Positions 3,372 to 33,197 of a DNA stretch of 64,000 bases are shown one piece after another. Positions within the stretch are counted from its first letter, which is position 1. Every line of letters begins with the position of its first letter. Below the pieces are notes generated by a model. That model ran no database searches and was not told the origin of the DNA. It saw only the letters and a list, made by a program, of their open reading frames with translations. The translations under genes and the position numbers were made by a program. Origin of the DNA: Actinomycetes bacterium (GTDB lineage: Bacteria; Actinomycetota; Acidimicrobiia; Acidimicrobiales; Bog-793); assembly GCA_021796535.1 (NCBI GenBank), contig JAKABW010000005.1:75672-139671 (forward strand). Reading direction: 5' to 3'.

Positions 3372-5168
3372 CTATTTGATGCCATCGACAACTTCATCTC
3401 CAACATGCAAGGCATTGGGTGTTGTGGGATTGACGGCAATATCTCCGTTTCCACTTATCCCTGTTGTAACTTCGACACGTTTTTCTTTACCGGATCGCAA
3501 GATATTTACATAGGTATTTCCGTTGGAAGTGGCAAAAATGGCAGCTATCGGAACCACCAGAACTGGCTTAGCCGTCTTTGCCGCCGTTATTGATATCTGT
3601 ACATTTTGGCTTACAAGTGATGTAGACACATGAGGTATCGGGGTGATGACTATAGGGTAATCAGCAGTGACTCCTATGCCAGAGTTGCCTGAGTTTTGAC
3701 CGGCACCTGAGTTTTGACCGGCTGGGCCGATAGATCCCGAATTGGAAGATCCCGAATTGCCCGAATTGGATGTGCTTAGATGACCTATTTTGGTTATGAT
3801 TCCTTGACCTTGATACCCAGTAATGCTCCCTGATATTATTACTTTTTGTCCCAGATGAATAGCTGATATGTCACTCGGAGTTATCTGTGCGTCTAGGACC
3901 GGATAGCCCGTTGAAAGTTTGATAAAAGGCAAGCCGGGCTTTGTGCCCAAAGATCCGGATCTGGAAATTATGCGAGCAGGTAAATTGGGTACAAAAACTA
4001 CTTCCGATTCTTCTACCTCAGGTCCAGTGACCTGTTCCAGGGCATCCAGATTGTCGGTTGTACTTTTTATAAGACTTTCGTAGTACGTGATTTCATTTTT
4101 ATATTCAGTCAGCGAGGATGACGGTGAACCTGTATTTATTGTTGCCGAAGGAGAAGATGCCACGCCGGAGTCAGTTAATCCGGAATTACCCGAAGAGCCG
4201 GAGTTATAGCTCACTACATAGTGATTTGCATAGCTTTTAGAATAATCCCTCTTATGTCCAGGCAGGCATTTCAGAGACACGAAGGGGCTTGTCACCTGAT
4301 CCCCTATTGATCCTGAAAGAGATACCACTTTTGCCCTTACACAAGATAAGAATATGGCCTCTGATTCTTCTACCTCAGGCCCGAAAGAAAGCTCAGCCGA
4401 AGAGAGACTTTGCTTATCATTTGCAACACTTTGCTGAGCAGCAGAGACCTCTGCCTGTAAAATATCTGTTCCGGTATTACCTGAGGTATTAGTAGTTGTG
4501 GTAGTCGAGATACCGGGCAGAGAAGTGGTAGTGGTAGTTGATTGATAAAGTTGATTTTTTAAGTTCAACAAATTGGATTCATCACTTTGCAGTGTTTGCT
4601 GATCCTGCTCTATTGCGGAAATACTGCCTGCAAATATAGGAGAAAACCCAATATGGTGATAATAGTCAGATACAGCTTTCTTGGTTCCGTTCCCAAACGT
4701 TCCGATCTGATCTTGTCCTATTGAATACCCAAGTGAGATAAGAGCTCTTTGTAACTCTGCTATATCCGGTCCTTGTTCTCCCGGCATAAGATTGCGATAA
4801 ATGGGTATTTTGCCTTGTAAGACAAACAGGGGATTGCCCGAGATACTGGCCAACACATTACCCGATCTAATAAAATTATGATTGTAGTTGTATACCTTTG
4901 TAATAACAGGTGAGGTTATACCCGACTGCTCAGACGGGTTGATATTCATAACATTTTGCTCTGTAAATGTTCCCCTAAATATTAAATTATTTACAAGTAC
5001 TTGTCTCCTTATGGGAGAAGTAATAAAACTTGGATTGGGTGGAGCAGTCTCTGCTGCAATAGCTGCCGGAGACTTTATCCTAGAAGATAGAACTATCCCT
5101 ACCACAGATACGATGACCAGCAGAACTACAGCTAATAAAAACATCTTTGTTCTTTTATTCATAGACAA
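3372..5168 (-). CDS. Membrane-anchored HlyD/MacA-like periplasmic adaptor with an inserted peptidoglycan-binding domain (module A)
   Basis: 598 aa with an N-terminal TM (LLAVVLLVIVSVVGIVL). It has a PG_binding_1-like motif, GPDIAELQRALISLGYSIGQDQIGTFGNGTKKAV. The C-terminal beta-barrel-like region (PVLVVPIAAIF...VGDEVV) is shared with the paralog at 9071..10339. It also has Thr- and Ser/Gly/Asn-rich low-complexity tracts. Confidence 0.7.
   Translation of the reverse strand: MSMNKRTKMFLLAVVLLVIVSVVGIVLSSRIKSPAAIAAETAPPNPSFITSPIRRQVLVNNLIFRGTFTEQNVMNINPSEQSGITSPVITKVYNYNHNFIRSGNVLASISGNPLFVLQGKIPIYRNLMPGEQGPDIAELQRALISLGYSIGQDQIGTFGNGTKKAVSDYYHHIGFSPIFAGSISAIEQDQQTLQSDESNLLNLKNQLYQSTTTTTSLPGISTTTTTNTSGNTGTDILQAEVSAAQQSVANDKQSLSSAELSFGPEVEESEAIFLSCVRAKVVSLSGSIGDQVTSPFVSLKCLPGHKRDYSKSYANHYVVSYNSGSSGNSGLTDSGVASSPSATINTGSPSSSLTEYKNEITYYESLIKSTTDNLDALEQVTGPEVEESEVVFVPNLPARIISRSGSLGTKPGLPFIKLSTGYPVLDAQITPSDISAIHLGQKVIISGSITGYQGQGIITKIGHLSTSNSGNSGSSNSGSIGPAGQNSGAGQNSGNSGIGVTADYPIVITPIPHVSTSLVSQNVQISITAAKTAKPVLVVPIAAIFATSNGNTYVNILRSGKEKRVEVTTGISGNGDIAVNPTTPNALHVGDEVVDGIK
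3915..4382 (-). repeat. Intragenic duplication inside the module A adaptor gene (copies at 4269..4382 and 3915..4025)
   Basis: GPEVEESEAIFLSCVRAKVVSLSGSIGDQVTSPFVSLK (aa 263-300) recurs as GPEVEESEVVFVPNLPARIISRSGSLGTKPGLPFIKL (aa 382-418). At DNA level, gattcttctacctcagg is present in both copies. Confidence 0.8.
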
Positions 5169-5255
5169 TACTTTACTTTTATCAGCATGAGATAAATAGA
5201 TACGTCTTTCATAAAACAGTTATTTGTCTCAAATAAATCTACATAAAAAATTATA

Positions 5256-6161
5256 TTAATACTTTGTCATTACACGTTTTGCAGCCGTAATAAGATAAGA
5301 GTCGATCTGCGCCATTTCTTGAAATTCTGTAGGATGCTTATTTATAATTTGTTTTTGATAATATGACTCCACCGCCAGCCAAGTATTCATCATGTTTACC
5401 TTGACTTTGCAGTTATAGTCTGTAATAGCTTCTGCAATTTGCGCCTTTTTGGGCGGATGTTTATCATTTTTAATAGCCGGCGGCGGAGTCTTTATGTCGT
5501 AGCCATGCGAAGCCATGCAGGAAGACCATTTCTTTATATCGCTCAGCATTATGGGATTATCTTGCGTTTCGCTGACAGAATTATTTATTTGATTACCAAT
5601 AAAAGTATCTGTTGCATTAAGCTCCTTACCTTGCTTTGCCGTAATAAAATTTGTTGCAGAAACATATTTCAGACAACTATTTTGCATTATATAATATGCC
5701 TGCCCATACTTTTTCGCATAGTTATTATTTAAATCCATCACGTATTTCATATTCCTGTTAGCAAGTGGCGTAGCTGGGGACACATATATCTCATACCCAT
5801 GCACTTCAGCTTCTTTTAGGTTGTAGACCCCAAAAATGTGAGCACTTATTCCCAAGTGTTGAGCATAAAAAGGGTCCTGCTCTAAAGCAAGCAGTGAGTT
5901 GATTGCAAAAGGGACGCCTTTCTTGGCCATGCAATTTTGATCTAATAAAGTTCCCGCATAAAATACCGTTGCCTCCGTATTTGCCGTCAAGACGTAAGAG
6001 GAAAAAGGTAAAACCGGCGCTGGACTATTGACGGGAGGTATATGAATACTGCCTGTGTCTAGAGGTTTTGTCGAAGACAAACCAGAACTGCACGAAGAAA
6101 GAAGGGAAAGAAGAGCAATACTTATAATGATAAGAAATAGTTTTTTACATTTAATTTTCAT
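5256..6161 (-). CDS. Lipoprotein with 4 conserved Cys, unknown function (module A)
   Basis: Signal peptide plus lipobox LLSSC (Cys24). Mature-chain cysteines are C77, C163, C215 and C251. It shares INNSV...W[ST][ST]C[MV]A and other Cys contexts with the lipoprotein at 8116..9069. Confidence 0.7.
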   Translation of the reverse strand: MKIKCKKLFLIIISIALLSLLSSCSSGLSSTKPLDTGSIHIPPVNSPAPVLPFSSYVLTANTEATVFYAGTLLDQNCMAKKGVPFAINSLLALEQDPFYAQHLGISAHIFGVYNLKEAEVHGYEIYVSPATPLANRNMKYVMDLNNNYAKKYGQAYYIMQNSCLKYVSATNFITAKQGKELNATDTFIGNQINNSVSETQDNPIMLSDIKKWSSCMASHGYDIKTPPPAIKNDKHPPKKAQIAEAITDYNCKVKVNMMNTWLAVESYYQKQIINKHPTEFQEMAQIDSYLITAAKRVMTKY

Positions 6162-6277
6162 ATTTATTTATATCAATCTTTATAAAATAACTTAACAAAT
6201 TTACAGATTAGGTACATTGATTTTTAACAAATGTACCTAATCTGTAATACTTACTTCAAAGGTATCTCTATATCTTA

Positions 6278-6727
6278 CTACTGCCAAATAGCATAGGCGG
6301 GATTACATCCAGTCAACGTTGGGTCTTTTACATAGATGCTGTTAGACCAGCCCTCAGGGTATTGTCCATAATATGCTGCCGGATCAACGTATGTACCATT
6401 TGGATTCACTCCATACATGTCATACCACGTATTATTAGGTTGCAATTGTCCGTTGCCTACAAAATATAGAGTCTCACCGTCTGCCCAATAGGCGACGCAT
6501 ACACGATTACTGCTTCCGGCTACGGCGGAAATCCAATCATTTTGAGATGGCCCGGAATGCATGAGGAGCTGATTTACCGAAGGATAACTCTCTTGTCCTA
6601 TTGGATATATTGTCCTTGCAGATGCTATAGGAATAGCTACAAACATAGCAGTCAAACTGATTGCAAATGCAACTATTAGTTTATGAATATCTTCATACTT
6701 CTCCTTTTTTATAGAAACATAAGGCAT
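6278..6727 (-). CDS. Small secreted Trp/Tyr-rich protein, unknown function
   Basis: 149 aa. It has a Sec-type signal (LIVAFAISLTAMFVAIPIASA|RT). The mature chain of about 110 aa has 2 Cys and many W/Y/N/G residues. It is the first gene of the minus-strand module, next to the AT-rich divergent region. Confidence 0.6.
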   Translation of the reverse strand: MPYVSIKKEKYEDIHKLIVAFAISLTAMFVAIPIASARTIYPIGQESYPSVNQLLMHSGPSQNDWISAVAGSSNRVCVAYWADGETLYFVGNGQLQPNNTWYDMYGVNPNGTYVDPAAYYGQYPEGWSNSIYVKDPTLTGCNPAYAIWQ

Positions 6728-6769
6728 ATAAACTTACTTATATAGCTTATGTTATACTTGACCGTGGTT

Positions 6770-6798
6770 ATCCTATATATATATACATACGTTGTCAA
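6770..6798 (-). promoter_or_regulatory. Candidate sigma70-like promoter for 6278..6727 and the genes downstream of it
   Basis: On the minus strand the sequence reads TTGACA (6798..6793), a 17-nt spacer, then TAGGAT (6775..6770). It lies about 40 nt upstream of the ATG at 6727. The context is AT-rich, so a chance match is possible. Confidence 0.3.
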
Positions 6799-8067
6799 GC
6801 AATATTTAGTTATTTTAAACTCAATTCCAAAATAAGAGCCATTTGCTCTGGTGAGACTAAATACGACATGCCTATACTCCCGGTAAATTTCATGGAAAGT
6901 TTCCCCTTCTAGGCATTTTCTTGGGTTGCGGTAGGTTTTCACAGCATCGCTTAGGTCGCTGGGATCAGCTCTGGGATCCTCACAATTCATTGCAAACTAC
7001 ATTAACCAAAATATGAGGATGACTAAATAATGGAGTAAGCAGCGCCGCGGAAAGAAAAGACGGCCAGCAGATCATTTGACAATCCGAGGTCACAGATGTG
7101 TCAGCTTAGCTTAAGCTTTAGTATTCAAACCTCAAGCTAAAGCTATACGAAACCAACTTTAGGTTACCCAGAAAAAGTAAGCATGGGTTATACTCGCTTG
7201 TCTCTTCCCGTAATACCGGGTCGCAGTCAATGGTACTTGTTTTTGACTTTTCTTACATCTGCTGGCGGTATTTTAGCAATTCAAATACCAGACATCCTTA
7301 CACCAAAGTATCCCTTAAGCGTAGTTCTCCTATACTTAGAAAAGCATATATCGAGAGAAGAGTACCTGCGCATTCCCTAAAAATGCACTGTAGGGAAATT
7401 AATTTAAGAGTCTTAAGACAGTTGACAACAAAAATTGATGAACTCTAGACTGTTGGCAATTAAAAAGATACGTTTTATACGATTGAACGAAAGGAGTATT
7501 TAAATTCGCACATAAATGTCCTGTTAATACGATCAGAAGAGCTTTACTTGTAGTTTCCTTGATATTGAGTATTAGCTTTTTCAACCTCACCGAAGACGGC
7601 ACAAAGGCAAATACTTCAACAACTTAGGAATACGTAACTATATCGATACCAAGCCAATATCCATAAGACAAGGACCGAATGGTGTGCGTACGAGTAACTA
7701 TCTAAATACAAGCGTGGCTTACCTGATTGTGGCTTTTTTATCAAAATCATGGTGTCTGGAAATATGATGCGAGAGATTTGGATTACTGTTGGCCATCCCT
7801 CTGCAATACCTGGACGGAAAACAGATTTGAATTATTGCAGGTAGCATCCTCTTGCTTTATACATAGTGTTAGCGCCGAAAGTCTCATCCAAATCAGACTG
7901 ACTGCGTATCATATGTATCCACCTTGCACTGCCAACAACTCATTGATTTCTATGAATATTTCATTAAAAGTCGCCAGTTTATTTACTGTCAGATAAATAA
8001 ACTCCAGACAGATATGTCTACCTTGTCAATCTATTTTGATAAAAAAATAAAACTTTGCTTACTGCTA

Positions 8068-8096
8068 TTGACATAAAAATTTTACAAGCTATAAAT
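8068..8096 (+). promoter_or_regulatory. Candidate sigma70-like promoter for the module B operon
   Basis: TTGACA (8068..8073), a 16-17 nt spacer, then TATAAAT (8090..8096). It overlaps the first ATG of the ORF (8095), which argues for the ATG at 8116 as the real start with a very short leader. Confidence 0.35.
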
Positions 8097-20897: not shown

Positions 20898-22361
20898 ATG
20901 TTAAAAAGATTTATTCCCAATATCAAGGTATTTTTTGCTGGACTGGCAATTGTATTGGGTTCATTTACCTTGATTGGAAGTGTAGCTGCTCCCGCTTCAG
21001 CGGGAGCAGCTACTTCATGCCACACAATCACCGTGATACACCGCGGCACACACATGGTTTTTTTGTGGAAACGTGTCCGCATTGACAAACACGGCAGACG
21101 CTTTGTGAAAAGAGAGCACATCTGGAGATCCAGGACCGTCATCGTAAGGGGCAAAAAGGTTACCAAGAAAATACCGGTCAAGGCAAGACGCAGATACGCG
21201 ATAAAACTGCGCAGAGAGGAATGTGTGGTCACCACGACCACGGCGGCACCGACAACGACCACGGCGGCACCCACAACGACCACGGCGGCACCCACAACGA
21301 CCACGGCGGCACCGACAACGACCACGGCGGCACCGACAACGACCACGGCGGCACCCGCGGTTCAGCCCAATCCGATAAGTGCAGATTTATCTCTCAGCAC
21401 AAATACTGTTTCTTATATCGGGGGCAGCGTCGGCTTAACCTACACGTCCGACAGTGCCGCATCTTGCAGTCTTTCCTCAACGCCTGCCCTCTGGTCCGGA
21501 AACAATCCTGCCGCGGTAAGCTGTAACGGCAGCTATTCTCTGGCAATCGATCAATCGGCTTCCGGGGGGCAGTGGACAATTACTTTTACCGCAACAGGAC
21601 AAAACGGTCAATCTGTATCGGATTCCCAAGTCCTCACACAAGACGCTCCTCCGCCTTTTAATATCACACCCAATTGGAGCGGATACGTAGTGCCTTCCGC
21701 CACGGCGATAATAACCGACGTCAGCGGAAACTGGACGGTCCCGACTCTCAATTGCAACGACACCCAAAACGCTACTGAGTCAGATTGGGTTGGGATAGGC
21801 GGTGCACAAAGCGGAACCAACTCGGGGGGAGTATTGCTGCAAACCGGCATCGACAACTCTTGCGTAAACGGAATACAAGAGAGCAGCGGATGGTGGGAAG
21901 AATTTCCGTCTAATCCAAATTATGGGATGCCATTTAGCAACTTTCCCGTATCCCCAGGCGACAATATACAGGCAAGTGTTTTTGAAAACAGCGGCGGCTC
22001 CTGGACCACGTTGCTGGAAAACCTTTCGACGGGACTGGAGGGGATCATGGTCACGGGCGAAGGCTGGGGCGTGGCACCCATCGGCGCCACGGGGTTTTCT
22101 GACCAGGGCACGACAACCAACGTATCCTATGCGGGAGGTTACACCGCCGAATGGATTGTGGAAGATCCCACCGGATCTTCAGGGAACTTAGTCCCGTTTG
22201 CCAATTACGGAAGCGTTACATTCACCAATCTCGGGACAAGCCTCAATCCATGGTATCTGACCGCAAGCGAAGGATACGCGATACAGCAAAACGGTTCTGT
22301 ACTTTCCGTACCGTCCCTTCCAGGAAGCGACGGTTTCAGCGTATACTACACCGGTCCTTAG
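20898..22361 (+). CDS. Secreted glutamic peptidase, family G1 (eqolisin-like), with a basic N-terminal module, a TTTTAAP x6 linker and an Ig-like domain
   Basis: It has a signal peptide (AGLAIVLGSFTLIGSVAAPASA). The C-terminal domain carries NWSGYVV..., DWVGIGG...VLLQTGID (Gln context) and AEWIVEDP (Glu context). These match the conserved blocks of scytalido/aspergilloglutamic peptidases. Confidence 0.75.
   Translation: MLKRFIPNIKVFFAGLAIVLGSFTLIGSVAAPASAGAATSCHTITVIHRGTHMVFLWKRVRIDKHGRRFVKREHIWRSRTVIVRGKKVTKKIPVKARRRYAIKLRREECVVTTTTAAPTTTTAAPTTTTAAPTTTTAAPTTTTAAPTTTTAAPAVQPNPISADLSLSTNTVSYIGGSVGLTYTSDSAASCSLSSTPALWSGNNPAAVSCNGSYSLAIDQSASGGQWTITFTATGQNGQSVSDSQVLTQDAPPPFNITPNWSGYVVPSATAIITDVSGNWTVPTLNCNDTQNATESDWVGIGGAQSGTNSGGVLLQTGIDNSCVNGIQESSGWWEEFPSNPNYGMPFSNFPVSPGDNIQASVFENSGGSWTTLLENLSTGLEGIMVTGEGWGVAPIGATGFSDQGTTTNVSYAGGYTAEWIVEDPTGSSGNLVPFANYGSVTFTNLGTSLNPWYLTASEGYAIQQNGSVLSVPSLPGSDGFSVYYTGP
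21231..21356 (+). repeat. Six tandem in-frame 21-bp repeats (ac[ca]acgaccacggcggcacc[gc]) encoding TTTTAAP x6
   Basis: Read directly. The units start at 21231, 21252, 21273, 21294, 21315 and 21336. They differ only at the Pro third position and at one base of the first unit. Confidence 0.95.
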
Positions 22362-22807: not shown

Positions 22808-23983
22808 TTAACCCGCCAGAGATACGATATAGCTGTCCTTATTACGGACGAACTCAGCGATACTGTCCCCGCCAAACTTGGCCAAAGCTTCTTTGGCCAA
22901 AACAAAAGCAGTCATCGCCTCAGCGACGACACCCATCGCCGGAACGGCGGTGACATCTGTGCGTTCTTTAAAAGATACCGTTTCTTCTTTGGTGACAACG
23001 TCGACTGTTTTCAAAACGGGACGGTTCAGCGTGGCCAGCGGTTTCATGTAAAGCCTTGCCACCAGGAGCGCTCCCGTTGAAATTCCGCCTTCGATACCGC
23101 CCGCATGCGAGGTTTCCCTGCCGTAAGAATTGGAGACCTCATCGTAGAAAATGGCGTCGTGAGCTTCGGAACCCCGCTTTTTTGCCACTTCGAATCCGTC
23201 GCCCAGCTCCACGGCTTTGATTGCCTGAATGCTCATGAGAGCCATCGCCAATTGGGCATCCAGCTTGCGGTCGTAGTGCACGTGGCTGCCGAGACCCACC
23301 GGTACCCCGTAGGCCAGCACTTCGGCAATTCCTCCGAGAGAATCACCAACTTTTGCCGCGGCCTTAATTTCGGCCACCATTCTTGCGGCGGCGGCTTCAT
23401 CAAAACAGCGCACTTCCGAAGCATCTATGCTTTCCAGATCTGCCATTCCGGGGCGCCGTGTCGTCTCCGAAAGAGCCGCTCCCACTCCGATAATATGACT
23501 GAGGACAAAAACGTCAATTTCTTTGAGCAATAATTTGAAAATTGCACCGGCCGCCACTCTGGCAGCCGTCTCTCTGGCCGAGGCTCTCTCCAGAATATCT
23601 CTGGCATCGTCCAGGCCGTATTTTTGCATGCCCGCCAAATCCGCATGTCCCGGCCTTGGAGCGGTAAGTTTTTTGGACGGCTCACCGGGATCGGGAGACA
23701 TTTCCGTTTCCCACTTGGGCCATTCCGTATTGTCGATCATAATGCAGATCGGAGAACCCAGGGTCCTGCCGTGTCGTATTCCGGAAAGGAGAGTGATCTC
23801 ATCCCTTTCAAAACGCATGCGCGGACCGCGCCCGTAACCGAGTCGCCTTCTCGCCAATTCGTCGGCTATTTGATCTTTTGTGACGGCAAGGCCCGCGGGT
23901 ACGCCGTCGACTATGACGGACAGACCTTTCCCATGGGATTCACCGGCGGTTAAAAAACGAAGCACGGCTTTACTATATCGCAT
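22808..23983 (-). CDS. aroC: Chorismate synthase
   Basis: The N-terminus LRFLTAGESHGKGLSVIVDGVPAGL and the 391-aa length are typical of AroC. GGAG lies 10 nt upstream of the ATG. Confidence 0.93.
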   Translation of the reverse strand: MRYSKAVLRFLTAGESHGKGLSVIVDGVPAGLAVTKDQIADELARRRLGYGRGPRMRFERDEITLLSGIRHGRTLGSPICIMIDNTEWPKWETEMSPDPGEPSKKLTAPRPGHADLAGMQKYGLDDARDILERASARETAARVAAGAIFKLLLKEIDVFVLSHIIGVGAALSETTRRPGMADLESIDASEVRCFDEAAAARMVAEIKAAAKVGDSLGGIAEVLAYGVPVGLGSHVHYDRKLDAQLAMALMSIQAIKAVELGDGFEVAKKRGSEAHDAIFYDEVSNSYGRETSHAGGIEGGISTGALLVARLYMKPLATLNRPVLKTVDVVTKEETVSFKERTDVTAVPAMGVVAEAMTAFVLAKEALAKFGGDSIAEFVRNKDSYIVSLAG

Positions 23984-24200
23984 TTAAAATAAGCTCCAAG
24001 ACACTTAGCAGGTATAAATTTGCCGGCTGCCAATAAACTATCAATTGCTATGACAAAATATGGGAAATGAGGCCGTACAGAGGGGATCGCTATACAAAAT
24101 TTGGTGTCTTGTTGCCGATTTCCAAAAAGTCTGCTTAGCGGATTCAGAGGAAAATCAAAACTTTCATCCCGAGACAAGTCGGGAAAAAGCCTTTGTCTAT

Positions 24201-24848
24201 CTACTTTTTGGCTGACTGGTAGTAAGGGTTTTGCCCGTCTTGGTGGGCCGTCACGTCCACCACGTCCATAATTTCCGGGACCATTTCTTTGATAGCCACG
24301 ACAATGCCTTGACTGAGTGTGACGGCGGCAAGGCCGCAACCCTGACAACCGCCGGAAAGCCTGAGATAAGCCACCCGGTCTTTCAGTCCGACCAAATCAG
24401 CCCTGCCTCCGTGAGCGGCTATCTGGGGATTGACCTGCTCTTCCAAGACCGCCTGTACTTGACGGGCGGTGTCGGAGTCGGTATCCAGATCTTTCAGGAA
24501 CTCCGGCACATCGGAAGGCGGAGTGTTGGGGTTGACCAATGCAAGACCGAATTCACCGGAGCTTTCCTGTACATCCAGTGTTGCTCCCCGCAAACTGGCA
24601 ACGCTGGCGGCCGGAATCACAATGTCCAGGTCGTCATGACCTATGATTACGTCTCCGTCCCTTCTGCCTTCCGGTCCTTCAAACCACATGCTGTATTGAA
24701 ATTGATCCCCGCTTACTCCGGTCACTTCCAAATAAAGAGCAAGCGTATCGGCATCTTCTTCGCCCTGCTTTGCTTCTACGACAAAACGCCTGGCGGCGTC
24801 CGTAACGTGCAAAACAGGTTCCGTGTACTCCTCTTCATTGCTTGGCAT
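24201..24848 (-). CDS. nfuA: Fe-S cluster carrier, NfuA-like (Cys-less A-type domain plus an Nfu domain with CxxC)
   Basis: The C-terminus reads VNPQIAAHGGRADLVGL...LSGGCQGCGLAAVTL, an Nfu/NifU C-terminal domain. The N-terminal 100 aa or so look like HesB/IscA but lack the cysteines. Confidence 0.65.
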   Translation of the reverse strand: MPSNEEEYTEPVLHVTDAARRFVVEAKQGEEDADTLALYLEVTGVSGDQFQYSMWFEGPEGRRDGDVIIGHDDLDIVIPAASVASLRGATLDVQESSGEFGLALVNPNTPPSDVPEFLKDLDTDSDTARQVQAVLEEQVNPQIAAHGGRADLVGLKDRVAYLRLSGGCQGCGLAAVTLSQGIVVAIKEMVPEIMDVVDVTAHQDGQNPYYQSAKK

Positions 24849-24958
24849 AATAAATCCGGTCCGTTCTTATATAGAGTTGTATTATTAAAAATTAGCACTT
24901 ATAACTCCGCGGGACAAACCAAACCCGCTTTATCCGCTAAAGTGAAAACAGCGACACC

Positions 24959-26488
24959 ATGGCGATAACCCGTTTACTTTTTTTGATACCGTCCAAGAGC
25001 TACAGAGCTCCCCGCCTTATGGAAGCCGTCAAAAAATTGCAGACGTCAACGGACTTTGAAGCGGTGATAGGTTCGGAAACCCCTCAGGCACTGGCAAGTC
25101 TGTTTCCCGATAAATTTTTACTGCTTGATTTTGACGACCTGAATGCCTCCGTCGAAAAGATTACGGAATACCACGCCCGACACAGACTGGATATGGTAGT
25201 TGCTTTCGACGAAGAAGCGGTTTCTCTGGCCAATTTGGCAAATGCCGGGCTGTCGCACACAAAGGATATGCTATCCGCTATTTTGACCGTGAAAAATAAG
25301 GCCTTTACCAGGATAGCTCTTTCTGATTCCGACGTGGCCCAGCCGGAGTACCGCTATTTGTTCTGCCGTGCCGAAGACGGCAGAACAAAAACTGTATTTG
25401 GCGACACTTCCGCGGGCATTGAAGTATTGCGCGCTCTCCCCGCCGACATCGCCGGGGATGCCAAAACTGCGGAGACGGCACTGCGGCAGCTGCTGGTACT
25501 CGGCGGCAACGCCGCAGAGGAGATGGGTTTTCCCGTTGTCGTCAAAGCCGTTGGACTTTCCGGCTCCAGGGGAATCATGAGAGCAAACAACCCAAAAGAG
25601 CTCGAAAAAGGAATCCTTGAATCCTTGGCCGTGGCGTGCAAAGAAAAATGCGAAATACGCCCGCAGATACTTATCGAAAAATACATACCGGGTGCAGAAG
25701 TAGCAATAGACGGATTTGTCAAAAACTCCCGCCTGATTCCGCTGGCGGTCTTTGACAAACCCGACCCTCTGACCGGACCCTATTTCGAAGAAACCATCTA
25801 TACCACTCCTTCAAGATATGACAAAGAAACACTTCAAAGCATCATAGATACAGTGCAAAGAGCATGCGATCATATCGGTGTCACTCAAGGCCCCATTCAT
25901 GCCGAATTGCGTCTTCCTTACAGGACCTCATATTCCGAAAGCAATCCCGCTGTACCCGAGGGGGAAAGCGCCGATTTACGGCCGCACCTGCTTGAAATAG
26001 CCGCCCGTCCGATAGGGGGACAGTGCGGAGATATCCTCGGTTTTTTGGATGACAAGTCCTTTTATGAGGTACTGATCGGACTCTGGCTGGAAGAAGATTT
26101 CCGACCGCGGCTTGCCGAAGGAGCTTTCGGAGCGATGATGATACCGATAGAAAAGACCGGCATCCTAAAAGAAGTCTCCGGCATCGACAAAGCTGAAGCC
26201 GTAAGGCACATAGCCCGGGTCAGCATCTCGATACCGCCCGGCCGCGGGGTGATAAGTCTTCCCGAAGGAGAAAGTTATCTCGGCTTCATCCTGAGCAAAG
26301 CCGATACGCCCGAAGAAGCCGAACTGGCTTTGCGGCAAGCTCACGCCGAATTGAAAATCGTTATAGACGACACCGGACCCAAAACCGCTATACTGGACAA
26401 ACTAACCCAAAACGGAGGTGGATACGACATTTCTGCCTATATTGAAACTCTGCTTTTTCACACAAAAGACAAACAATGCGCGTCCTGA
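24959..26488 (+). CDS. ATP-grasp superfamily ligase, substrate unknown
   Basis: 509 aa. It has FPVVVKAVGLSGSRGIMRANN, EKYIPGAEVAIDGFV and GPIHAELRL...LLEIAARPIGG, which are typical ATP-grasp fold blocks. It overlaps the next gene by 13 nt. Confidence 0.7.
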   Translation: MAITRLLFLIPSKSYRAPRLMEAVKKLQTSTDFEAVIGSETPQALASLFPDKFLLLDFDDLNASVEKITEYHARHRLDMVVAFDEEAVSLANLANAGLSHTKDMLSAILTVKNKAFTRIALSDSDVAQPEYRYLFCRAEDGRTKTVFGDTSAGIEVLRALPADIAGDAKTAETALRQLLVLGGNAAEEMGFPVVVKAVGLSGSRGIMRANNPKELEKGILESLAVACKEKCEIRPQILIEKYIPGAEVAIDGFVKNSRLIPLAVFDKPDPLTGPYFEETIYTTPSRYDKETLQSIIDTVQRACDHIGVTQGPIHAELRLPYRTSYSESNPAVPEGESADLRPHLLEIAARPIGGQCGDILGFLDDKSFYEVLIGLWLEEDFRPRLAEGAFGAMMIPIEKTGILKEVSGIDKAEAVRHIARVSISIPPGRGVISLPEGESYLGFILSKADTPEEAELALRQAHAELKIVIDDTGPKTAILDKLTQNGGGYDISAYIETLLFHTKDKQCAS

Positions 26489-27900
26489 TTATATCCACCT
26501 ATGATCTCGGCACTCAGCCCCTGATACCGGCCAGACTCAAGGCAAGCCTGAAAGCCGGCGGCCATGGGGCAAAAGCCGTAGATTTGTCCGTATCGGCCAT
26601 GGACCCCGGCGACTTGTCTTGGGCGGACGCGGTGATCTTGTTTATCCCGATGCACACGGCTCTGTCGCTTGCCAAAGAGCTGGCGGAGACAATCCGCTCG
26701 GAAAGAGAGGACCTGCCTTTTTGTTTTTTCGGACTATACGCCCCCGCCGCTTACGGGGCAAAGCTCTTGTCTCCGGGAGACATCGCAATAGCCGGCGACA
26801 ACTTTACGACTTTATTTGCCTGGCTCGACTCGTTTTCCGCCAAAAACGCCTTCCGCAGCGAAGGCGGCTCCCTGCGAATAGACCTCGGGCCTCCGAAACA
26901 GCTTTTTCGCTTACCCCCCGACAGAACAGACTTTTTGCCGCTCGACAACTATCTCCACTACCTGGAAGGAGACGTTTCCAAAACGGTAGCCACTCTGGAA
27001 ACCGTTTCGGGGTGCTCGCACAAGTGCAGACACTGTCCCGTTCCCGTCGTTTACGGCGGCAGAACCAGACCGACACCGGAAGCAGAAATCCTGGCCGACG
27101 CGGCCCAACAGATTGCCCAAGGGGCATCGCACATTCACTTTTCTGACCCCGATTTCTTCAACAGACCCGCTTATTCCCTCGGGATCATGGAGAAACTGAA
27201 AAAACTTTACCCCGATCTCACCTTTGACGCGACGATCAAAATAAGCCATCTCCTCAAGTACGAAACCCTCTTGCCCTGGTTGGCAAAGCAGGGATGCACA
27301 CTCGTTATAACGGCATTGGAACAGGTAAACGACAGGACTTTGGCCATTTTGGACAAAGGCCATACCAAAAGCGACGCCAGACGCGCTTTCCGGCTTTTGC
27401 GGCAAGTCGGCATAGAACCGAGACCGTCCTTGCTGCCCTTCACTCCTTGGACAACGGCAAATGACCTGGTTGAACTGGCCGACTTTGTCGCCGAAAACGA
27501 TCTGGCGGCCAATATAGACCCGGTTCAGTGGTCCATCAGGCTTCTCATCCCGCCCGGATCCCTCTTGTCGGAAGAAGAAGTCGACATGCCTCCCGGCGTC
27601 TTGGAAGAACAAGAAGAGAGTCTCAGCAGAGGCTGGCACTCACCCGATCCCAGACTCGACGGGCTGGCGGCGGAAATAGGCAACCTGGCCGAAAAAATAG
27701 CCGGCATCCCGCCGCGGGAAGCTTATCTTGCCGTCCGGAAATTAATTTTTTCCGCACTCGGGATCCCCTACTACGAAACAGAAACAGACGGAGACCTTGC
27801 TTCTCCGATCCCCGAAACGGACAGACCGCGGCTCAGCGAAAACTGGTTTTGTTGCGCCGTTCCCACCGGCGACCAAATGAGTAAAATGTCATGTCACTGA
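26476..27900 (+). CDS. Radical SAM enzyme with an N-terminal B12-binding-like domain and a C-terminal CCAVP motif
   Basis: The CxxxCxxC motif is at C180/C184/C187 (GCSHKCRHCPV, 27013..27036). The N-terminal 110 aa or so are Rossmann-like (VLIISTYD...AVILFIPMH). The tail WFCCAVPTGDQ at 27850..27864 resembles the CUAEP/CCAEP-tail naming motif of an NCBI radical SAM family; this comes from memory and needs an HMM check. Confidence 0.75.
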   Translation: MRVLIISTYDLGTQPLIPARLKASLKAGGHGAKAVDLSVSAMDPGDLSWADAVILFIPMHTALSLAKELAETIRSEREDLPFCFFGLYAPAAYGAKLLSPGDIAIAGDNFTTLFAWLDSFSAKNAFRSEGGSLRIDLGPPKQLFRLPPDRTDFLPLDNYLHYLEGDVSKTVATLETVSGCSHKCRHCPVPVVYGGRTRPTPEAEILADAAQQIAQGASHIHFSDPDFFNRPAYSLGIMEKLKKLYPDLTFDATIKISHLLKYETLLPWLAKQGCTLVITALEQVNDRTLAILDKGHTKSDARRAFRLLRQVGIEPRPSLLPFTPWTTANDLVELADFVAENDLAANIDPVQWSIRLLIPPGSLLSEEEVDMPPGVLEEQEESLSRGWHSPDPRLDGLAAEIGNLAEKIAGIPPREAYLAVRKLIFSALGIPYYETETDGDLASPIPETDRPRLSENWFCCAVPTGDQMSKMSCH

Positions 27901-28643
27901 CCCCATATACGAACACAAAAGAGTGGGTGAGCTTTACGGATAAAGCTCAAAACCGCACCTGGTTGCTGGACGTCACTTTTCTGACGTCAAATTGGAGCTG
28001 CATCTACGGCAACGGGTGCAAAGGCGTCCTCACGGAAGACTCCTCCTTCTTGGTACAGGGCTGCTGCAGTTACGGGGCTTTTTTCATCGACGGAGACGAC
28101 GTTGCCAGAGTAAAAAAGTCGGCAAAAAAACTCAACAAAGAAGACTGGCAATTCAAAAAAGCCTCGGACGACTCCGGAGGTCCCGTCAAAGTGCCAAAAA
28201 AATCTAAGGAGTCGGCCACCACCAAATTGTATGACGATGCCTGTATTTTTCTCAACAGACCGGGCTTCCCCGCCGGACCAGGCTGCGCCCTTCACCAAAA
28301 AGCCCTGAAAGACGGGGTGTCGCCCATGTCCTACAAACCGGAGGTATGCTGGCAACTCCCGCTCAGGGTGGAGGATTTGGAAGACGCTTCCGGCCATACT
28401 TTTACCAAGGTAACCTCTTGGGAAAGAAAAGACTGGGGAGCGGGCGGCGAAGAGTTCCATTGGTGGTGCACGGAAGACGAAAACGCTTATGCGGGAACAC
28501 AGCCGGTCCATATCGGCATGGAAGCAGAACTTAACGCTTTGGTGGGGAAAGACGTTTTGGAGCGTTTCAGAGCCTACCTGACGGACAAAAACCCTCCCGC
28601 CGTCAAACTGCCCCGACCCACAAGAGCCGCCAAAAAAACCTGA
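27891..28643 (+). CDS. Cys-rich putative metal/Fe-S-binding protein, unknown function
   Basis: 250 aa. It carries CIYGNGCKG, GCCSYGAFF, ACIFLNRPGFPAGPGCALH and CWQLP, Cys clusters reminiscent of YkgJ/CxxCxxCC-type proteins. It overlaps the radical SAM gene by 10 nt. Confidence 0.5.
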   Translation: MSLTPYTNTKEWVSFTDKAQNRTWLLDVTFLTSNWSCIYGNGCKGVLTEDSSFLVQGCCSYGAFFIDGDDVARVKKSAKKLNKEDWQFKKASDDSGGPVKVPKKSKESATTKLYDDACIFLNRPGFPAGPGCALHQKALKDGVSPMSYKPEVCWQLPLRVEDLEDASGHTFTKVTSWERKDWGAGGEEFHWWCTEDENAYAGTQPVHIGMEAELNALVGKDVLERFRAYLTDKNPPAVKLPRPTRAAKKT

Positions 28644-28647
28644 AGCC

Positions 28648-29484
28648 TTACTTTTGACAAGTTGGGCAGTAATGGCAGCTGCGCCCGGTCACCTTTGTCC
28701 GCACTATCGTGTCCCCGCAGCTTTCGCACGGCATGCCGGCTTTGGAGTAAACTTTGTGATGGTACTGATAAGTTCCTTCGCTTCCCGTTATGTCCAGGTA
28801 CTTTTTGTCCGAGAGCGTGGAGCCTTTGTGCTCAACGGCTTTTGACAAAATACCGCCCACCGCTTTATGCAGCCGGGAGAGCTCCCCATCCGTCAGCAAA
28901 GAGGCTTTTTTCATCGGCAAGACTCCCGCTTCATGACAGATCTCGTCGCCATAGATATTGCCGATCCCGGCCACCGTCTCCTGCTCCAAAAGCAGGCCTT
29001 TGACAGCAACTTCTCGCTTTTTTGCAACTTTGGTGAAGTACCCCAAAGTAAAGTCTTGACTCAGGGAATCCGGTCCCAACGACGACAACTCTTCGGGAAG
29101 ACCCTTGCCGGCGGTTTTTTCGGATATAAAAATCTCCCCGAACGTCCTGGGGTCAAAAAAAAGCAACTCGCTGCCATTGTCCAAAATGAAACGGGCGTGC
29201 AGATGCTTGGCGTCGCCCAAGAAAGGAGGCCGGACGATCTCCAGCCTGCCGGTCATGCGTAAATGGATTACCATATTCACGCCGTTCTCCATGGAAACAA
29301 TCAGGTATTTCCCGTGACGCCCACACGCCGATACCAGATTGCCGACAAGAAAATTATGCAATTTATCAGGTTCGTGACGCCTGATTGTTCTCGGGCCCAT
29401 GACCTCGGCGGCAATGATCCGCCTGTGCCTCAGATGCCGCTCCAGACCCCTTCTGAGTGTCTCCACTTCCGGCAATTCCGGCAT
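28648..29484 (-). CDS. mutM: Formamidopyrimidine-DNA glycosylase
   Basis: N-terminus MPELPEVETLRRGL and C-terminal zinc finger CESCG...CHYCPTCQ. Confidence 0.93.
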   Translation of the reverse strand: MPELPEVETLRRGLERHLRHRRIIAAEVMGPRTIRRHEPDKLHNFLVGNLVSACGRHGKYLIVSMENGVNMVIHLRMTGRLEIVRPPFLGDAKHLHARFILDNGSELLFFDPRTFGEIFISEKTAGKGLPEELSSLGPDSLSQDFTLGYFTKVAKKREVAVKGLLLEQETVAGIGNIYGDEICHEAGVLPMKKASLLTDGELSRLHKAVGGILSKAVEHKGSTLSDKKYLDITGSEGTYQYHHKVYSKAGMPCESCGDTIVRTKVTGRSCHYCPTCQK

Positions 29485-32114: not shown

Positions 32115-33197
32115 CTAACCTACAGCCGACACCGGCGTGAGATCAACTTTCTTCTCCCGATACGGAAGCACCATGTATTCTATGAGATCTCTCTCTCCCG
32201 CCAAAACCAAGTACTCCAGGTTATGTAAATGCGATACCGCACCCACCTTGGTGCCCTGAGGATTATAAATGCCGATCTTGGCGCCTACATAACGCCTGGA
32301 ATCAAAAGCCAAAACTTGCACATGCTCGAGATGCGAACACATGGCCACCAGGTCTTCCAAGGAAACCCAGGCTTCGTTGTTATACGAGAGAACGACGACT
32401 TTTGCCGACAGAGAGGAGACGAGAGATCCGAGAGCCTGCGGCATCCGGCCTGCTTTATTGAAAACGCTTTTGTTGACCTCGGATTTATTGTCTTCCCGCT
32501 TGCGGGCAACGCCGTAACAGGCGGGGTTGTCCCAGGCCACCAACGTCTCCCAAATGTGATAGTTGGCATAGTAGCTGTGCTGATTGTAGGGGGGGTCCAA
32601 ATAGGCAAAATCCACCGGGGTAAGTTCGGAAACCAGCTTGCAGGCATCCCCCCTGAGCGCCCGGCCCCCGCCCGGCAAGAGCTCCGGAAGTTCAAGCTTC
32701 AGAGGTTTATACGAACGCGGGGCCCACTCTTTGATGTAGGCCATTTGCAATCCGACGGTGGAGTCCACCTTGTCTGCGGCATAGATCAAAGACGTGAGCA
32801 GCACGTCGTGATACGCGGAATCGGAAAACTCGTTTTTGATGGCATCCCTGATCGCATCTATTTTTTCGCCGTTAAAAGGTTGGAAAAACCTCGATTCCCG
32901 ACAAAAAATCTCGGTGAAATAACCTTTGTAACCGGGCCTTTGCGAAAGGTATTCCAGAATTTCTTGTATTTGAGCTGCATCTGATTTCTCGGCATCCGTC
33001 GTGATGTGGCAATTGGCAAAGACAAAAGAATAGCGGGCCGAGTCAGCGGCGGTCACGTAGGCCCCCCGGCGCTTCAATTCCTGAGCCACGCGGGTCGTCC
33101 CCGTAAACATATCCAAAGCCGACTCCGACGCCGACCTTTCGTAAAGGTCACCCAAGACAGAGACCAACCTTCTTTTGGAGCCCAGGTACTTAATCAT
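32115..33197 (-). CDS. N6-adenine DNA methyltransferase, Dam/D12-class-like, with no adjacent restriction gene
   Basis: MIKYLGSKRRLV is the [FY]xGSK N-terminal motif. DMFTGTTRVAQ is an FxGxG-like SAM motif. AYLDPPYNQHSYY is the DPPY catalytic motif. The motif order is alpha-class. Confidence 0.75.
   Translation of the reverse strand: MIKYLGSKRRLVSVLGDLYERSASESALDMFTGTTRVAQELKRRGAYVTAADSARYSFVFANCHITTDAEKSDAAQIQEILEYLSQRPGYKGYFTEIFCRESRFFQPFNGEKIDAIRDAIKNEFSDSAYHDVLLTSLIYAADKVDSTVGLQMAYIKEWAPRSYKPLKLELPELLPGGGRALRGDACKLVSELTPVDFAYLDPPYNQHSYYANYHIWETLVAWDNPACYGVARKREDNKSEVNKSVFNKAGRMPQALGSLVSSLSAKVVVLSYNNEAWVSLEDLVAMCSHLEHVQVLAFDSRRYVGAKIGIYNPQGTKVGAVSHLHNLEYLVLAGERDLIEYMVLPYREKKVDLTPVSAVG

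Follow-up and report, generated by a model that had tools for sequence, protein, structure and literature searches.

Genes at the locus

The window analysed here, a stretch of 64,000 nucleotides from an Actinomycetes bacterium (GenBank assembly GCA_021796535.1, contig JAKABW010000005.1, positions 75,672 to 139,671 of the forward strand), contains a compact locus built around a radical S-adenosylmethionine (SAM) enzyme. Three genes lie on the plus strand. Gene 1 (24959..26488, 509 aa) encodes an ATP-grasp protein of the L-amino-acid-ligase (LAL) type, gene 2 (26476..27900, 474 aa) the radical SAM protein, and gene 3 (27891..28643, 250 aa) a Cys-rich protein. A gene for an NfuA-like Fe–S carrier (24201..24848, 215 aa) is located upstream on the minus strand. 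We are highly confident that the radical SAM enzyme, the Nfu carrier and the ATP-grasp ligase constitute a module.

Gene 1 and gene 2 overlap by 13 nt (ATGCGCGTCCTGA), and gene 2 and gene 3 overlap by 10 nt (ATGTCACTGA), as the sequence itself shows. Both the order of the genes and their overlaps recur in the metagenome-assembled genomes (MAGs) L004 (75% identity), one of the nearest relatives, which are labelled Actinomycetes, and L005 (59% identity). They bear out the single operon that had been proposed in an earlier, model-made interpretation of the letters and their open reading frames (ORFs), hereafter called the sequence-only reading. Over about 60 loci, the distance between the stop codon of the ATP-grasp gene and the start codon of the radical SAM gene clustered at −16 to +60 nt. 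The first residues of each protein are conserved among homologues. In the case of gene 1, homologues keep the N-terminal sequence RLLFLIPS.SYRA, which favours the start at 24959, as chosen in the sequence-only reading, over that of the public gene call, which begins 20 codons later.

Co-conservation of the radical SAM, Nfu and ATP-grasp genes

A scan of species-representative genomes yielded at least 539 relatives of the radical SAM protein. The best 80 loci were analysed, and neighbouring genes were counted by tblastn over 70 of them; ORF calling was poor in high-GC loci. These loci carry the labels Acidimicrobiia, Thermoleophilia, Egibacteraceae, Chloroflexota and Acidobacteriota. An ATP-grasp gene was located directly upstream of the radical SAM gene in 61 of the 70 loci (87%). 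A divergent nfu gene was found within 2.5 kb of the radical SAM gene in 63 loci (90%), and 67 loci (96%) contained nfu at any position. Gene 3 directly followed the radical SAM gene in 17 loci (24%), all of which belong to the sub-group that keeps aroC. Rearranged loci retained pairs of the genes, namely Nfu with ATP-grasp (L015, L030 and L039) or Nfu with radical SAM (L042, L060 and L069). When the ORFs from all 80 loci were clustered naively, nothing proved conserved besides Nfu, ATP-grasp, radical SAM, gene 3 and aroC.

Nfu/ATP-grasp pairs without a radical SAM gene were present in a Nitrospira MAG and on a Dehalococcoidia-labelled contig. With the Nitrospira ATP-grasp protein as query, a metagenome scan uncovered a second gene order, which dominated with 16 loci and consists of co-directional genes for the radical SAM protein, a single-domain Nfu protein of 93 aa and the ATP-grasp protein, separated by gaps of approximately 10–50 nt. 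In locus L098, 8 nt separate the radical SAM stop codon from the start of nfu, and the operon is flanked by unrelated genes. Nfu was encoded within 400 nt of the ATP-grasp gene in 20 of the 35 metagenome loci having a 1-kb flank on each side, and a radical SAM gene was present in 11 of the 23 loci having 2.5-kb flanks. No gene 3 homologue was detected in the metagenome loci with the order radical SAM, Nfu, ATP-grasp. Since the three genes recur in two orders with unrelated flanks, a functional module of radical SAM, Nfu and ATP-grasp proteins is the only reasonable reading of these data.

The sequence-only reading had treated the ATP-grasp, radical SAM and Cys-rich proteins as a unit and nfuA as a mere neighbour, and it had suggested profile searches and an analysis of co-conservation for the three proteins. 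The 70 loci call for a revision. The conserved core is made up of Nfu, ATP-grasp and radical SAM, and in the alternative operon nfu lies between the two enzyme genes. The divergent NfuA-like gene 110 nt upstream, correctly described in the sequence-only reading, is thus a core partner, and gene 3 is not part of the core.

Individual loci showed further features. In Aciditerrimonas, the operon is split, yet gene 3 still overlaps the radical SAM gene. Between the ATP-grasp and radical SAM genes of Aciditerrimonas ferrireducens (L085, 6880-7917), a DsrE-family sulfur-relay gene and a helix–turn–helix/Pyridox_ox_2 regulator gene are located on the opposite strand. A 345-aa gene overlaps the ATP-grasp stop codon in a single Dehalococcoidia-labelled locus (L087, 4129-5166). 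Its product has no Pfam or NCBIfam match and resembles a MetE-like Meth_synt_2 protein weakly (pairwise E 1e-4, 26% over 224 aa), with HxC and C-terminal CG motifs aligned. DUF3386 and PMSR genes in L086 were likewise observed in one locus. We regard these single-locus finds, DsrE included, as anecdotal. Upstream of the operon in L098 (3622-3909) and in 10 related metagenome loci we noticed a highly charged ORF of 95 aa (GHYGFERRRRADIQKAKQEAKRQRK...WEWFSPSR...DDWVLLTDV) without a Pfam match. It was discarded as a candidate precursor, being confined to one metagenomic lineage (73–100% identity) and absent from the window and from the actinobacterial loci.

The radical SAM protein is related to ArsL

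In NCBIfam, the gene 2 product matched NF040546, the family of CUAEP/CCAEP-tail radical SAM (seleno)proteins, with 415.6 bits over residues 3–469, which is below the cutoff of 500. The ArsL family NF040542 followed with 209 bits over residues 3–398, below its cutoff of 450 bits. All other NCBIfam families, including every B12 radical SAM family, scored 37.6 bits or less. A match to the Pfam family Radical_SAM was also obtained. At 547 bits, the homologue P0075 from Egibacter exceeds the NF040546 cutoff, and it reaches 287 bits against ArsL. At E ≤ 1e-10, the cluster representatives among relatives of the NF040546 type number over 3,000. Judged by these scores, gene 2 encodes a divergent, sub-threshold relative of NF040546 and is sister to ArsL. 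The match to NF040546 is full-length, and it includes the CX3CX2C motif and the tail frame RPRL.E.WFCC..PT..Q. The neighbourhood of Nfu and ATP-grasp genes is common to the window and to bona fide members such as P0075.

The CX3CX2C cluster motif GCSHKCRHC (27013..27036, plus strand), with C180, C184 and C187 as already assigned in the sequence-only reading, is invariant in 30 homologues. Across the CUAEP family, only these three Cys residues and a Cys dyad in the C-terminal tail are invariant, which leaves no ligands for an auxiliary cluster. The AlphaFold2 (AF2) model of the gene 2 product (predicted local distance difference test score, pLDDT, of 91.5) shows a Rossmann-like N-terminal domain, with a beta-alpha-beta pattern in residues 1–121, and a TIM-barrel core. 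Foldseek placed AprD4 at the top, followed by OxsB, MgmA, TsrM and MiaB; CysS, TokK and lipoyl synthase were also among the matches.

ArsL, encoded in the arsinothricin arsQML cluster, cleaves SAM at the C-gamma–S bond. The products are methylthioadenosine (MTA) and a 3-amino-3-carboxypropyl (ACP) radical, which is passed on to As(III). The enzyme was characterised with only a [4Fe–4S] cluster, and papers from 2026 describe it as the only radical SAM enzyme of canonical fold to form an ACP radical in place of the 5'-deoxyadenosyl radical. Its tail with three C-terminal Cys residues (CCxxC) binds As(III) and holds no cluster. The tail is dispensable for SAM cleavage but required for product formation.

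Gene 2 is homologous to ArsL over the N-terminal domain and the radical SAM core. Both have the GC.H.C..C motif in common, in which C180, H182, C184 and C187 match, and in an alignment of plasmid ArsL proteins with the CUAEP family, the CC of RCCLKC falls on the CC dyad of the family. The two groups differ in the remainder of the tail, which reads WFCC[A/S]EPT..Q in the gene 2 family (WFCCAVPT...C in the window) and not RCCLKC; ahead of the motif, the gene 2 family has a helical linker of about 50 aa with no counterpart in ArsL. They also differ in their surroundings. ArsL is accompanied by ArsM, ArsQ and ars resistance genes and resides on plasmids or islands, whereas the partner here is Nfu and the module lies in the chromosomal core.

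The C-terminal tail and its selenocysteine forms

The tail of the window protein, RPRLSENWFCCAVPTGDQMSKMSCH (27823..27897, plus strand), contains the dyad C459–C460 (27850..27855) and a third Cys, C473. The family consensus is RPRL[ST]ExWFC[C/U][A/S]EPTxxQ. In the window, the tail reads ...WFCCAVPTGDQMSKMSCH, and the motif at 27850..27864 reads C-C-A-V-P instead of C-[U/C]-A-E-P, with the dyad, the Pro-Thr pair and the upstream RPRLSE.WF retained. Replacement of the family Glu by V, A or M was confined to the clade of the window, with V in the sister MAG L004 and M in the sister MAG L005; all other loci have [A/S]-E-P. The same clade conserves C473, and further Cys residues occurred in only 32 of 116 family tails. 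The window protein is also shorter at this end, having 14 residues after the dyad as compared to a family median of 23.

TGA, the codon for selenocysteine (Sec), takes the place of the second Cys codon of the dyad in 7 of the 80 genome loci and in 17 of 18 metagenome operons, and the AEPT..Q sequence continues in frame (L040, L046, L049, L053, L058, L062 and L063; L098 at 5591-5650; L100, L109, L124, L127 and L144; L169 at ~9369). A GC-rich hairpin (GGGCC-AGUU-GGCCC) is located 12–16 nt 3' of the TGA codon, as expected of a bacterial Sec insertion sequence (SECIS) element. The annotated gene of Thermomicrobium roseum stops exactly at the TGA codon of the dyad. The in-frame TGA codon and the hairpin are consistent with Sec insertion, and the exchange of Cys for Sec at the dyad suggests that the dyad is chemically active.

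The relation to ArsL makes ACP chemistry a conceivable, if tentative, assignment for the gene 2 product. The sequence-only reading had classed it as a B12-type (class B) radical SAM enzyme, of a kind that usually methylates or rearranges unactivated carbons. Worked out further, a canonical cobalamin enzyme would use a 5'-deoxyadenosyl radical for such a step on a small molecule, the ATP-grasp enzyme would ligate or activate the product, and the tail would serve as a redox or hydrogen-atom donor. The Rossmann-like domain that prompted this assignment is indeed present in the AF2 model, and the predicted fold matches OxsB, TsrM, MgmA, CysS and TokK. Many homologues carry precomputed matches to the B12-binding family PF02310. 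The CC/CU tail resembles that of the thioredoxin reductase type; mammalian thioredoxin reductase shuttles electrons through a Cys-Sec dyad on its C-terminal tail. Gene 2 itself, however, gave no PF02310 match at E ≤ 0.01, and the use of B12 is unsupported. The B12 radical SAM families remained at or below 37.6 bits as compared to 209 bits for ArsL, strong matches being limited to NF040546 and ArsL. The top fold match, AprD4, has to our knowledge the same N-terminal domain and no cobalamin, and ArsL, the nearest relative that has been studied, was characterised with only the [4Fe–4S] cluster. We therefore regard a class B methylation or rearrangement as unlikely.

The ATP-grasp protein and the ligases of plasmid ArsL clusters

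The ATP-grasp assignment of gene 1 in the sequence-only reading was substantiated by Pfam matches to ATP-grasp_4 (76.4 bits, cutoff 27) and LAL_C2 (54.3 bits, cutoff 29.4). The best match in the PDB was the ligase BL00235 (3VOT), with an E value of 7e-21 for the single sequence. The profile of the gene 1 family aligned with BL00235 at 1.6e-62 over positions 52–409, which is near end to end and includes the GP[YF]FEE motif. Gene 1 is therefore a predicted L-amino-acid ligase, closest to BL00235. It shares the architecture of ATP-grasp_4 and LAL_C2 with BL00235 and BacD/YwfE, at an identity of only ~25–30%, and differs from them by large insertions and a C-terminal extension (509 vs ~410–430 aa). 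Insertions and extension also make the protein about 90 aa longer than most of its orthologues. A further difference is that Nfu, the radical SAM protein or both always accompany the gene 1 family. BL00235 makes Met-Gly and Met-Met, with Met as the N-terminal substrate (PMC6920838).

A comparable pairing was found on plasmids. In 35 of 36 plasmids, an LAL-like ATP-grasp gene is located within 5 kb of an ArsL gene with an RCCLKC tail (for example L171, 436-1668; L172, 1659-2882; L173, 444-1667; L174, 6461-7777). These plasmids originate from Alicyclobacillus, the Bacillus cereus group, Priestia, Pantoea and Klebsiella, and the ATP-grasp gene is often accompanied by genes for a CMD-family protein, a major facilitator superfamily (MFS) transporter, a GTP-binding protein and an aquaporin. 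The ars-cluster ATP-grasp proteins also combine ATP-grasp_4 with LAL_C2, scored 88–142 bits against the gene 1 profile and reached a probability of 99.7% in hhalign. Because they form a separate subfamily, more distant from the gene 1 family than BL00235 is, the pairings in ArsL clusters and in CUAEP loci are analogous, and the ligases may have been recruited independently. A search of 72,556 plasmids with the gene 1 family gave no match. We found no literature on ATP-grasp proteins in ArsL clusters; the one paper that contains both arsinothricin and ATP-grasp is unrelated. The linkage suggests that the natural products of the plasmid ArsL clusters may be arsinothricin-containing peptides.

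The NfuA-like carrier and the Cys-rich protein

The NfuA-like protein matched the Pfam families NifU (69.9 bits, residues 131–197) and Fe-S_biosyn (23.4 bits, residues 13–108). It is composed of a degenerate, Cys-free A-type N-terminal domain and a C-terminal Nfu domain with the motif GGCQGCG (C168/C171). Its score against the NfuA model TIGR03341 was 99.3 bits, below the equivalog cutoff of 269. The Cys-free A-type domain joined to a CXXC Nfu domain, and the genetic linkage between the carrier and a radical SAM enzyme, recall NfuA and its clients LipA and MiaB. In E. coli, the cluster that LipA sacrifices is regenerated by NfuA, and we know of no clustering of E. coli nfuA with its client genes. 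The system in the window differs in that the radical SAM protein has no Cys residues for an auxiliary cluster and in the sub-cutoff score of the carrier.

Gene 3 encodes a protein with eight Cys residues, including the vicinal pair C58–C59, all of which are invariant in 40 homologues; its description as Cys-rich in the sequence-only reading was accurate. The local model PF11307.13 (DUF3109) matched weakly, with 17.9 bits as compared to a gathering threshold of 33.5, and 18 of the 40 relatives matched the DUF3109 model at E < 0.01. Precomputed Pfam annotation lists PF11307 (named Rv0495c), without any mark, for gene 3 and its 40 aligned relatives. The AF2 model has a pLDDT of 77.9; a Foldseek search against the PDB revealed no related fold (best E 0.4), and a sequence search of the PDB no match, so that structure offered no function to transfer. 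By these comparisons, gene 3 is a distant relative of DUF3109/Rv0495c and an accessory of one actinobacterial clade, translationally coupled to the radical SAM gene in the window, and it is probably an Fe–S or Zn redox partner. Deletion of Rv0495c in Mycobacterium tuberculosis resulted in an oxidised cytosol and raised levels of reactive oxygen species. A redox or Fe–S role would fit this phenotype and the family assignment. The likeness is limited by the weak DUF3109 match, by the linkage of gene 3 to the radical SAM gene in only one clade and by the missing fold relative in the PDB.

A possible pathway and its alternatives

The module probably serves a small-molecule pathway rather than the maturation of a ribosomally synthesised and post-translationally modified peptide (RiPP). 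The sequence-only reading had arrived at a lineage-conserved chromosomal pathway of this kind in place of a mobile cluster, and the conserved synteny, the unobtrusive GC content and the lack of plasmid matches for the gene 1 family agree with it. It had been unable to assign the genes to a described pathway, and our family and literature searches led to none. The family member of T. roseum adjoins genes for a pyridoxal phosphate-dependent aminotransferase and an MFS transporter, neighbours that fit an amino-acid-like small molecule.

Our best explanation, to which we give somewhat less than an even chance, is an ArsL-type ACP transfer by the radical SAM enzyme that is coupled to the ligase, with Nfu serving the cluster. 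In this scheme, the radical SAM enzyme would cleave SAM reductively, as ArsL does, to MTA and an ACP radical, which would be captured by a soft heteroatom X held on the flexible CC/CU tail. The Nfu partner suggests sulfur or selenium as X, and the analogy to ArsL a metalloid. The product would be a methionine-like 2-amino-4-X-butanoate, and the LAL-type ligase would join it to a second amino acid at the expense of ATP. This role of the ligase is plausible because BL00235 uses methionine, which is itself a 2-amino-4-X-butanoate. Nfu would load or repair the oxygen-labile [4Fe–4S] cluster or supply the chalcogen, and gene 3 would act as a redox or Fe–S accessory. The final product would be a small metabolite derived from amino acids and not a modified peptide.

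Several observations weigh against this proposal. The family NF040546 is described as uncharacterised, and the ACP step rests on an identity of ~27–31% to ArsL-type proteins. The family tail has two Cys residues where ArsL has three, and no arsenic genes are located nearby. The window protein scores below the NF040546 cutoff and lacks the family Glu (CCAVP). The B12-binding domain, often detectable in homologues, leaves room for canonical class B chemistry. On the side of the ligase, the gene 1 family resembles BL00235 (215 bits) more than the ATP-grasp proteins of the ars clusters (88–142 bits), and roughly one in two of the metagenome loci with long flanks around this ATP-grasp gene have neither partner nearby. 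Finally, Nfu may be no more than a housekeeping carrier for which co-expression is an advantage.

Apart from class B chemistry, the radical SAM enzyme could insert sulfur or selenium in the manner of LipA and MiaB, an option we consider rather improbable. A cluster on holo-Nfu, bridged by the CC/CU tail and the CXXC motif of Nfu, would be consumed as the chalcogen donor, so that Nfu would act stoichiometrically, and the ATP-grasp enzyme would prepare or process the acceptor. Such a function would account for the tight linkage of Nfu to both enzymes in two gene orders. Two conserved tail Cys residues are also too few for an auxiliary cluster of the radical SAM enzyme's own, the fold matches include MiaB and lipoyl synthase, the role of E. 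coli NfuA for LipA provides a general precedent, and a DsrE gene is inserted in the Aciditerrimonas locus. Vicinal Cys residues, however, are poor ligands for one cluster, and the homologous tail of ArsL binds none. If X is sulfur or selenium, the insertion overlaps with the ACP transfer proposed above.

A function identical or nearly identical to that of ArsL appears still less probable. The tail would bind a toxic metalloid (As, Sb, Te or Hg), which would be built into an organometalloid amino acid, serving either to detoxify the metalloid or as an antimetabolite, and the ATP-grasp enzyme would convert this amino acid into a dipeptide pro-drug. The homology to ArsL and the LAL-like ATP-grasp proteins usually found in ArsL-type clusters point in this direction, as do the three tail Cys residues in the clade of the window (C459, C460 and C473), the number that ArsL uses for As(III), and the link drawn by Haft between CU motifs and organometallic chemistry. 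Against it stand the absence of a third tail Cys from most of the family and the chromosomal position of the module among core housekeeping genes. Near the module, neither the window nor those loci that were examined one gene at a time contained ars, mer or efflux genes, the other loci having been screened for module genes only.

Least probable of all is a modification by the radical SAM and ATP-grasp enzymes of a ribosomal peptide, of Nfu or of the radical SAM protein's own tail, for which pairs of ATP-grasp and radical SAM proteins in RiPP clusters, the modification of a protein by the ACP-radical enzyme Dph2 and the ever-present Nfu as a possible substrate could be cited, but which is contradicted by the absence of a conserved small ORF, by an ATP-grasp protein of the free-amino-acid-ligase type that aligns over its full length with BL00235, and by a module without a protease, transporter or leader-recognition gene.

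Returning to the ACP transfer, a more specific version is that Nfu, the LAL ligase and the radical SAM protein with its CC(CU) tail form an unrecognised route to a C–S or C–Se amino acid or dipeptide, in which the ACP radical is moved onto a chalcogen delivered by an Fe–S cluster on Nfu. We consider this version speculative and give it little weight. If true, the product could serve deep-branching Actinomycetota, Chloroflexota/Thermomicrobiota and other lineages as, e.g., a thiol or selenol cofactor of low molecular weight. The enzyme would be a second non-canonical one of the radical SAM type, and the LAL-like ATP-grasp proteins of ArsL clusters would imply that the natural arsinothricin-type products of Bacillus, Priestia and Pantoea are dipeptides.

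The sister family of ArsL is far more widespread than ArsL itself and occupies core chromosomal positions. It travels with Nfu and a methionine-type ligase across phyla, often with Sec at the presumed substrate-binding dyad, and the ArsL clusters contain an analogous ligase. These findings turn an uncharacterised family into a concrete, testable hypothesis, and Egibacter rhizosphaerae (CP036402), A. ferrireducens and T. roseum (TRD_RS12835) are cultured sources of the proteins. Should the ACP hypothesis be true, non-canonical cleavage of SAM would be more widely distributed, possibly together with a new sulfur or selenium metabolite or a dedicated role of Nfu. The three-component module, the second gene order, the dominance of Sec outside the Actinomycetota and the parallel with the ArsL ligases are not in the searchable literature. 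We found no paper that combines NfuA with ATP-grasp, or a radical SAM protein with both an L-amino acid ligase and Nfu.

Flanking regions and other features of the window

The AT-rich intergenic region between nfuA and gene 1 (24849..24958, 110 nt, without strand) presumably holds the promoters of both nfuA and the operon. Promoter and terminator scans of this region gave nothing above the shuffled background and no consensus sigma-70 site, and an Rfam search of 23900..29000 at E ≤ 1 detected no riboswitch, leader or other element. The locus is bordered by the chorismate synthase gene (aroC) on one side and by mutM, rnc, acpP and plsX on the other. The mutM gene, which is on the opposite strand, ends 4 nt beyond gene 3, in agreement with the direct adjacency described in the sequence-only reading. 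The GC content is inconspicuous, and contigs of two MAG assemblies (GCA_027408275.1 and GCA_027408315.1) are identical to the window.

All ORFs of at least 20 aa in 23984..25020 were listed as possible RiPP precursors, and no conserved small ORF was found in the flanks, where the sequence-only reading had seen none either. A public gene call of 51 aa (24060..24215, plus strand) was rejected as a precursor. It overlaps the 3' end of nfuA, no Pfam match is recorded for it, and it is probably spurious.

Three observations concern more distant parts of the window. At approximately 32115-33197 (minus strand; L001, 15640-16722), a gene for a Dam-like DNA methyltransferase (MethyltransfD12) is located between plsX and a yceD-like gene and interrupts the otherwise conserved housekeeping string recG, rsmD, coaD, yceD, plsX, acpP, rnc, mutM. 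The stretch from 4001 to 8000 has a low GC content of 0.38–0.40 as compared to ~0.52 elsewhere, with few long ORFs in 6161-8095, and may represent acquired or non-coding DNA. At 20898-22361, a Peptidase_A4-family protein of 487 aa is encoded, whose gene contains a near-perfect 21-nt tandem repeat with 5.8 copies (21234-21355). The repeat encodes a Thr/Ala/Pro linker, (TTTTAAP)n, which follows a probable signal or anchor region.

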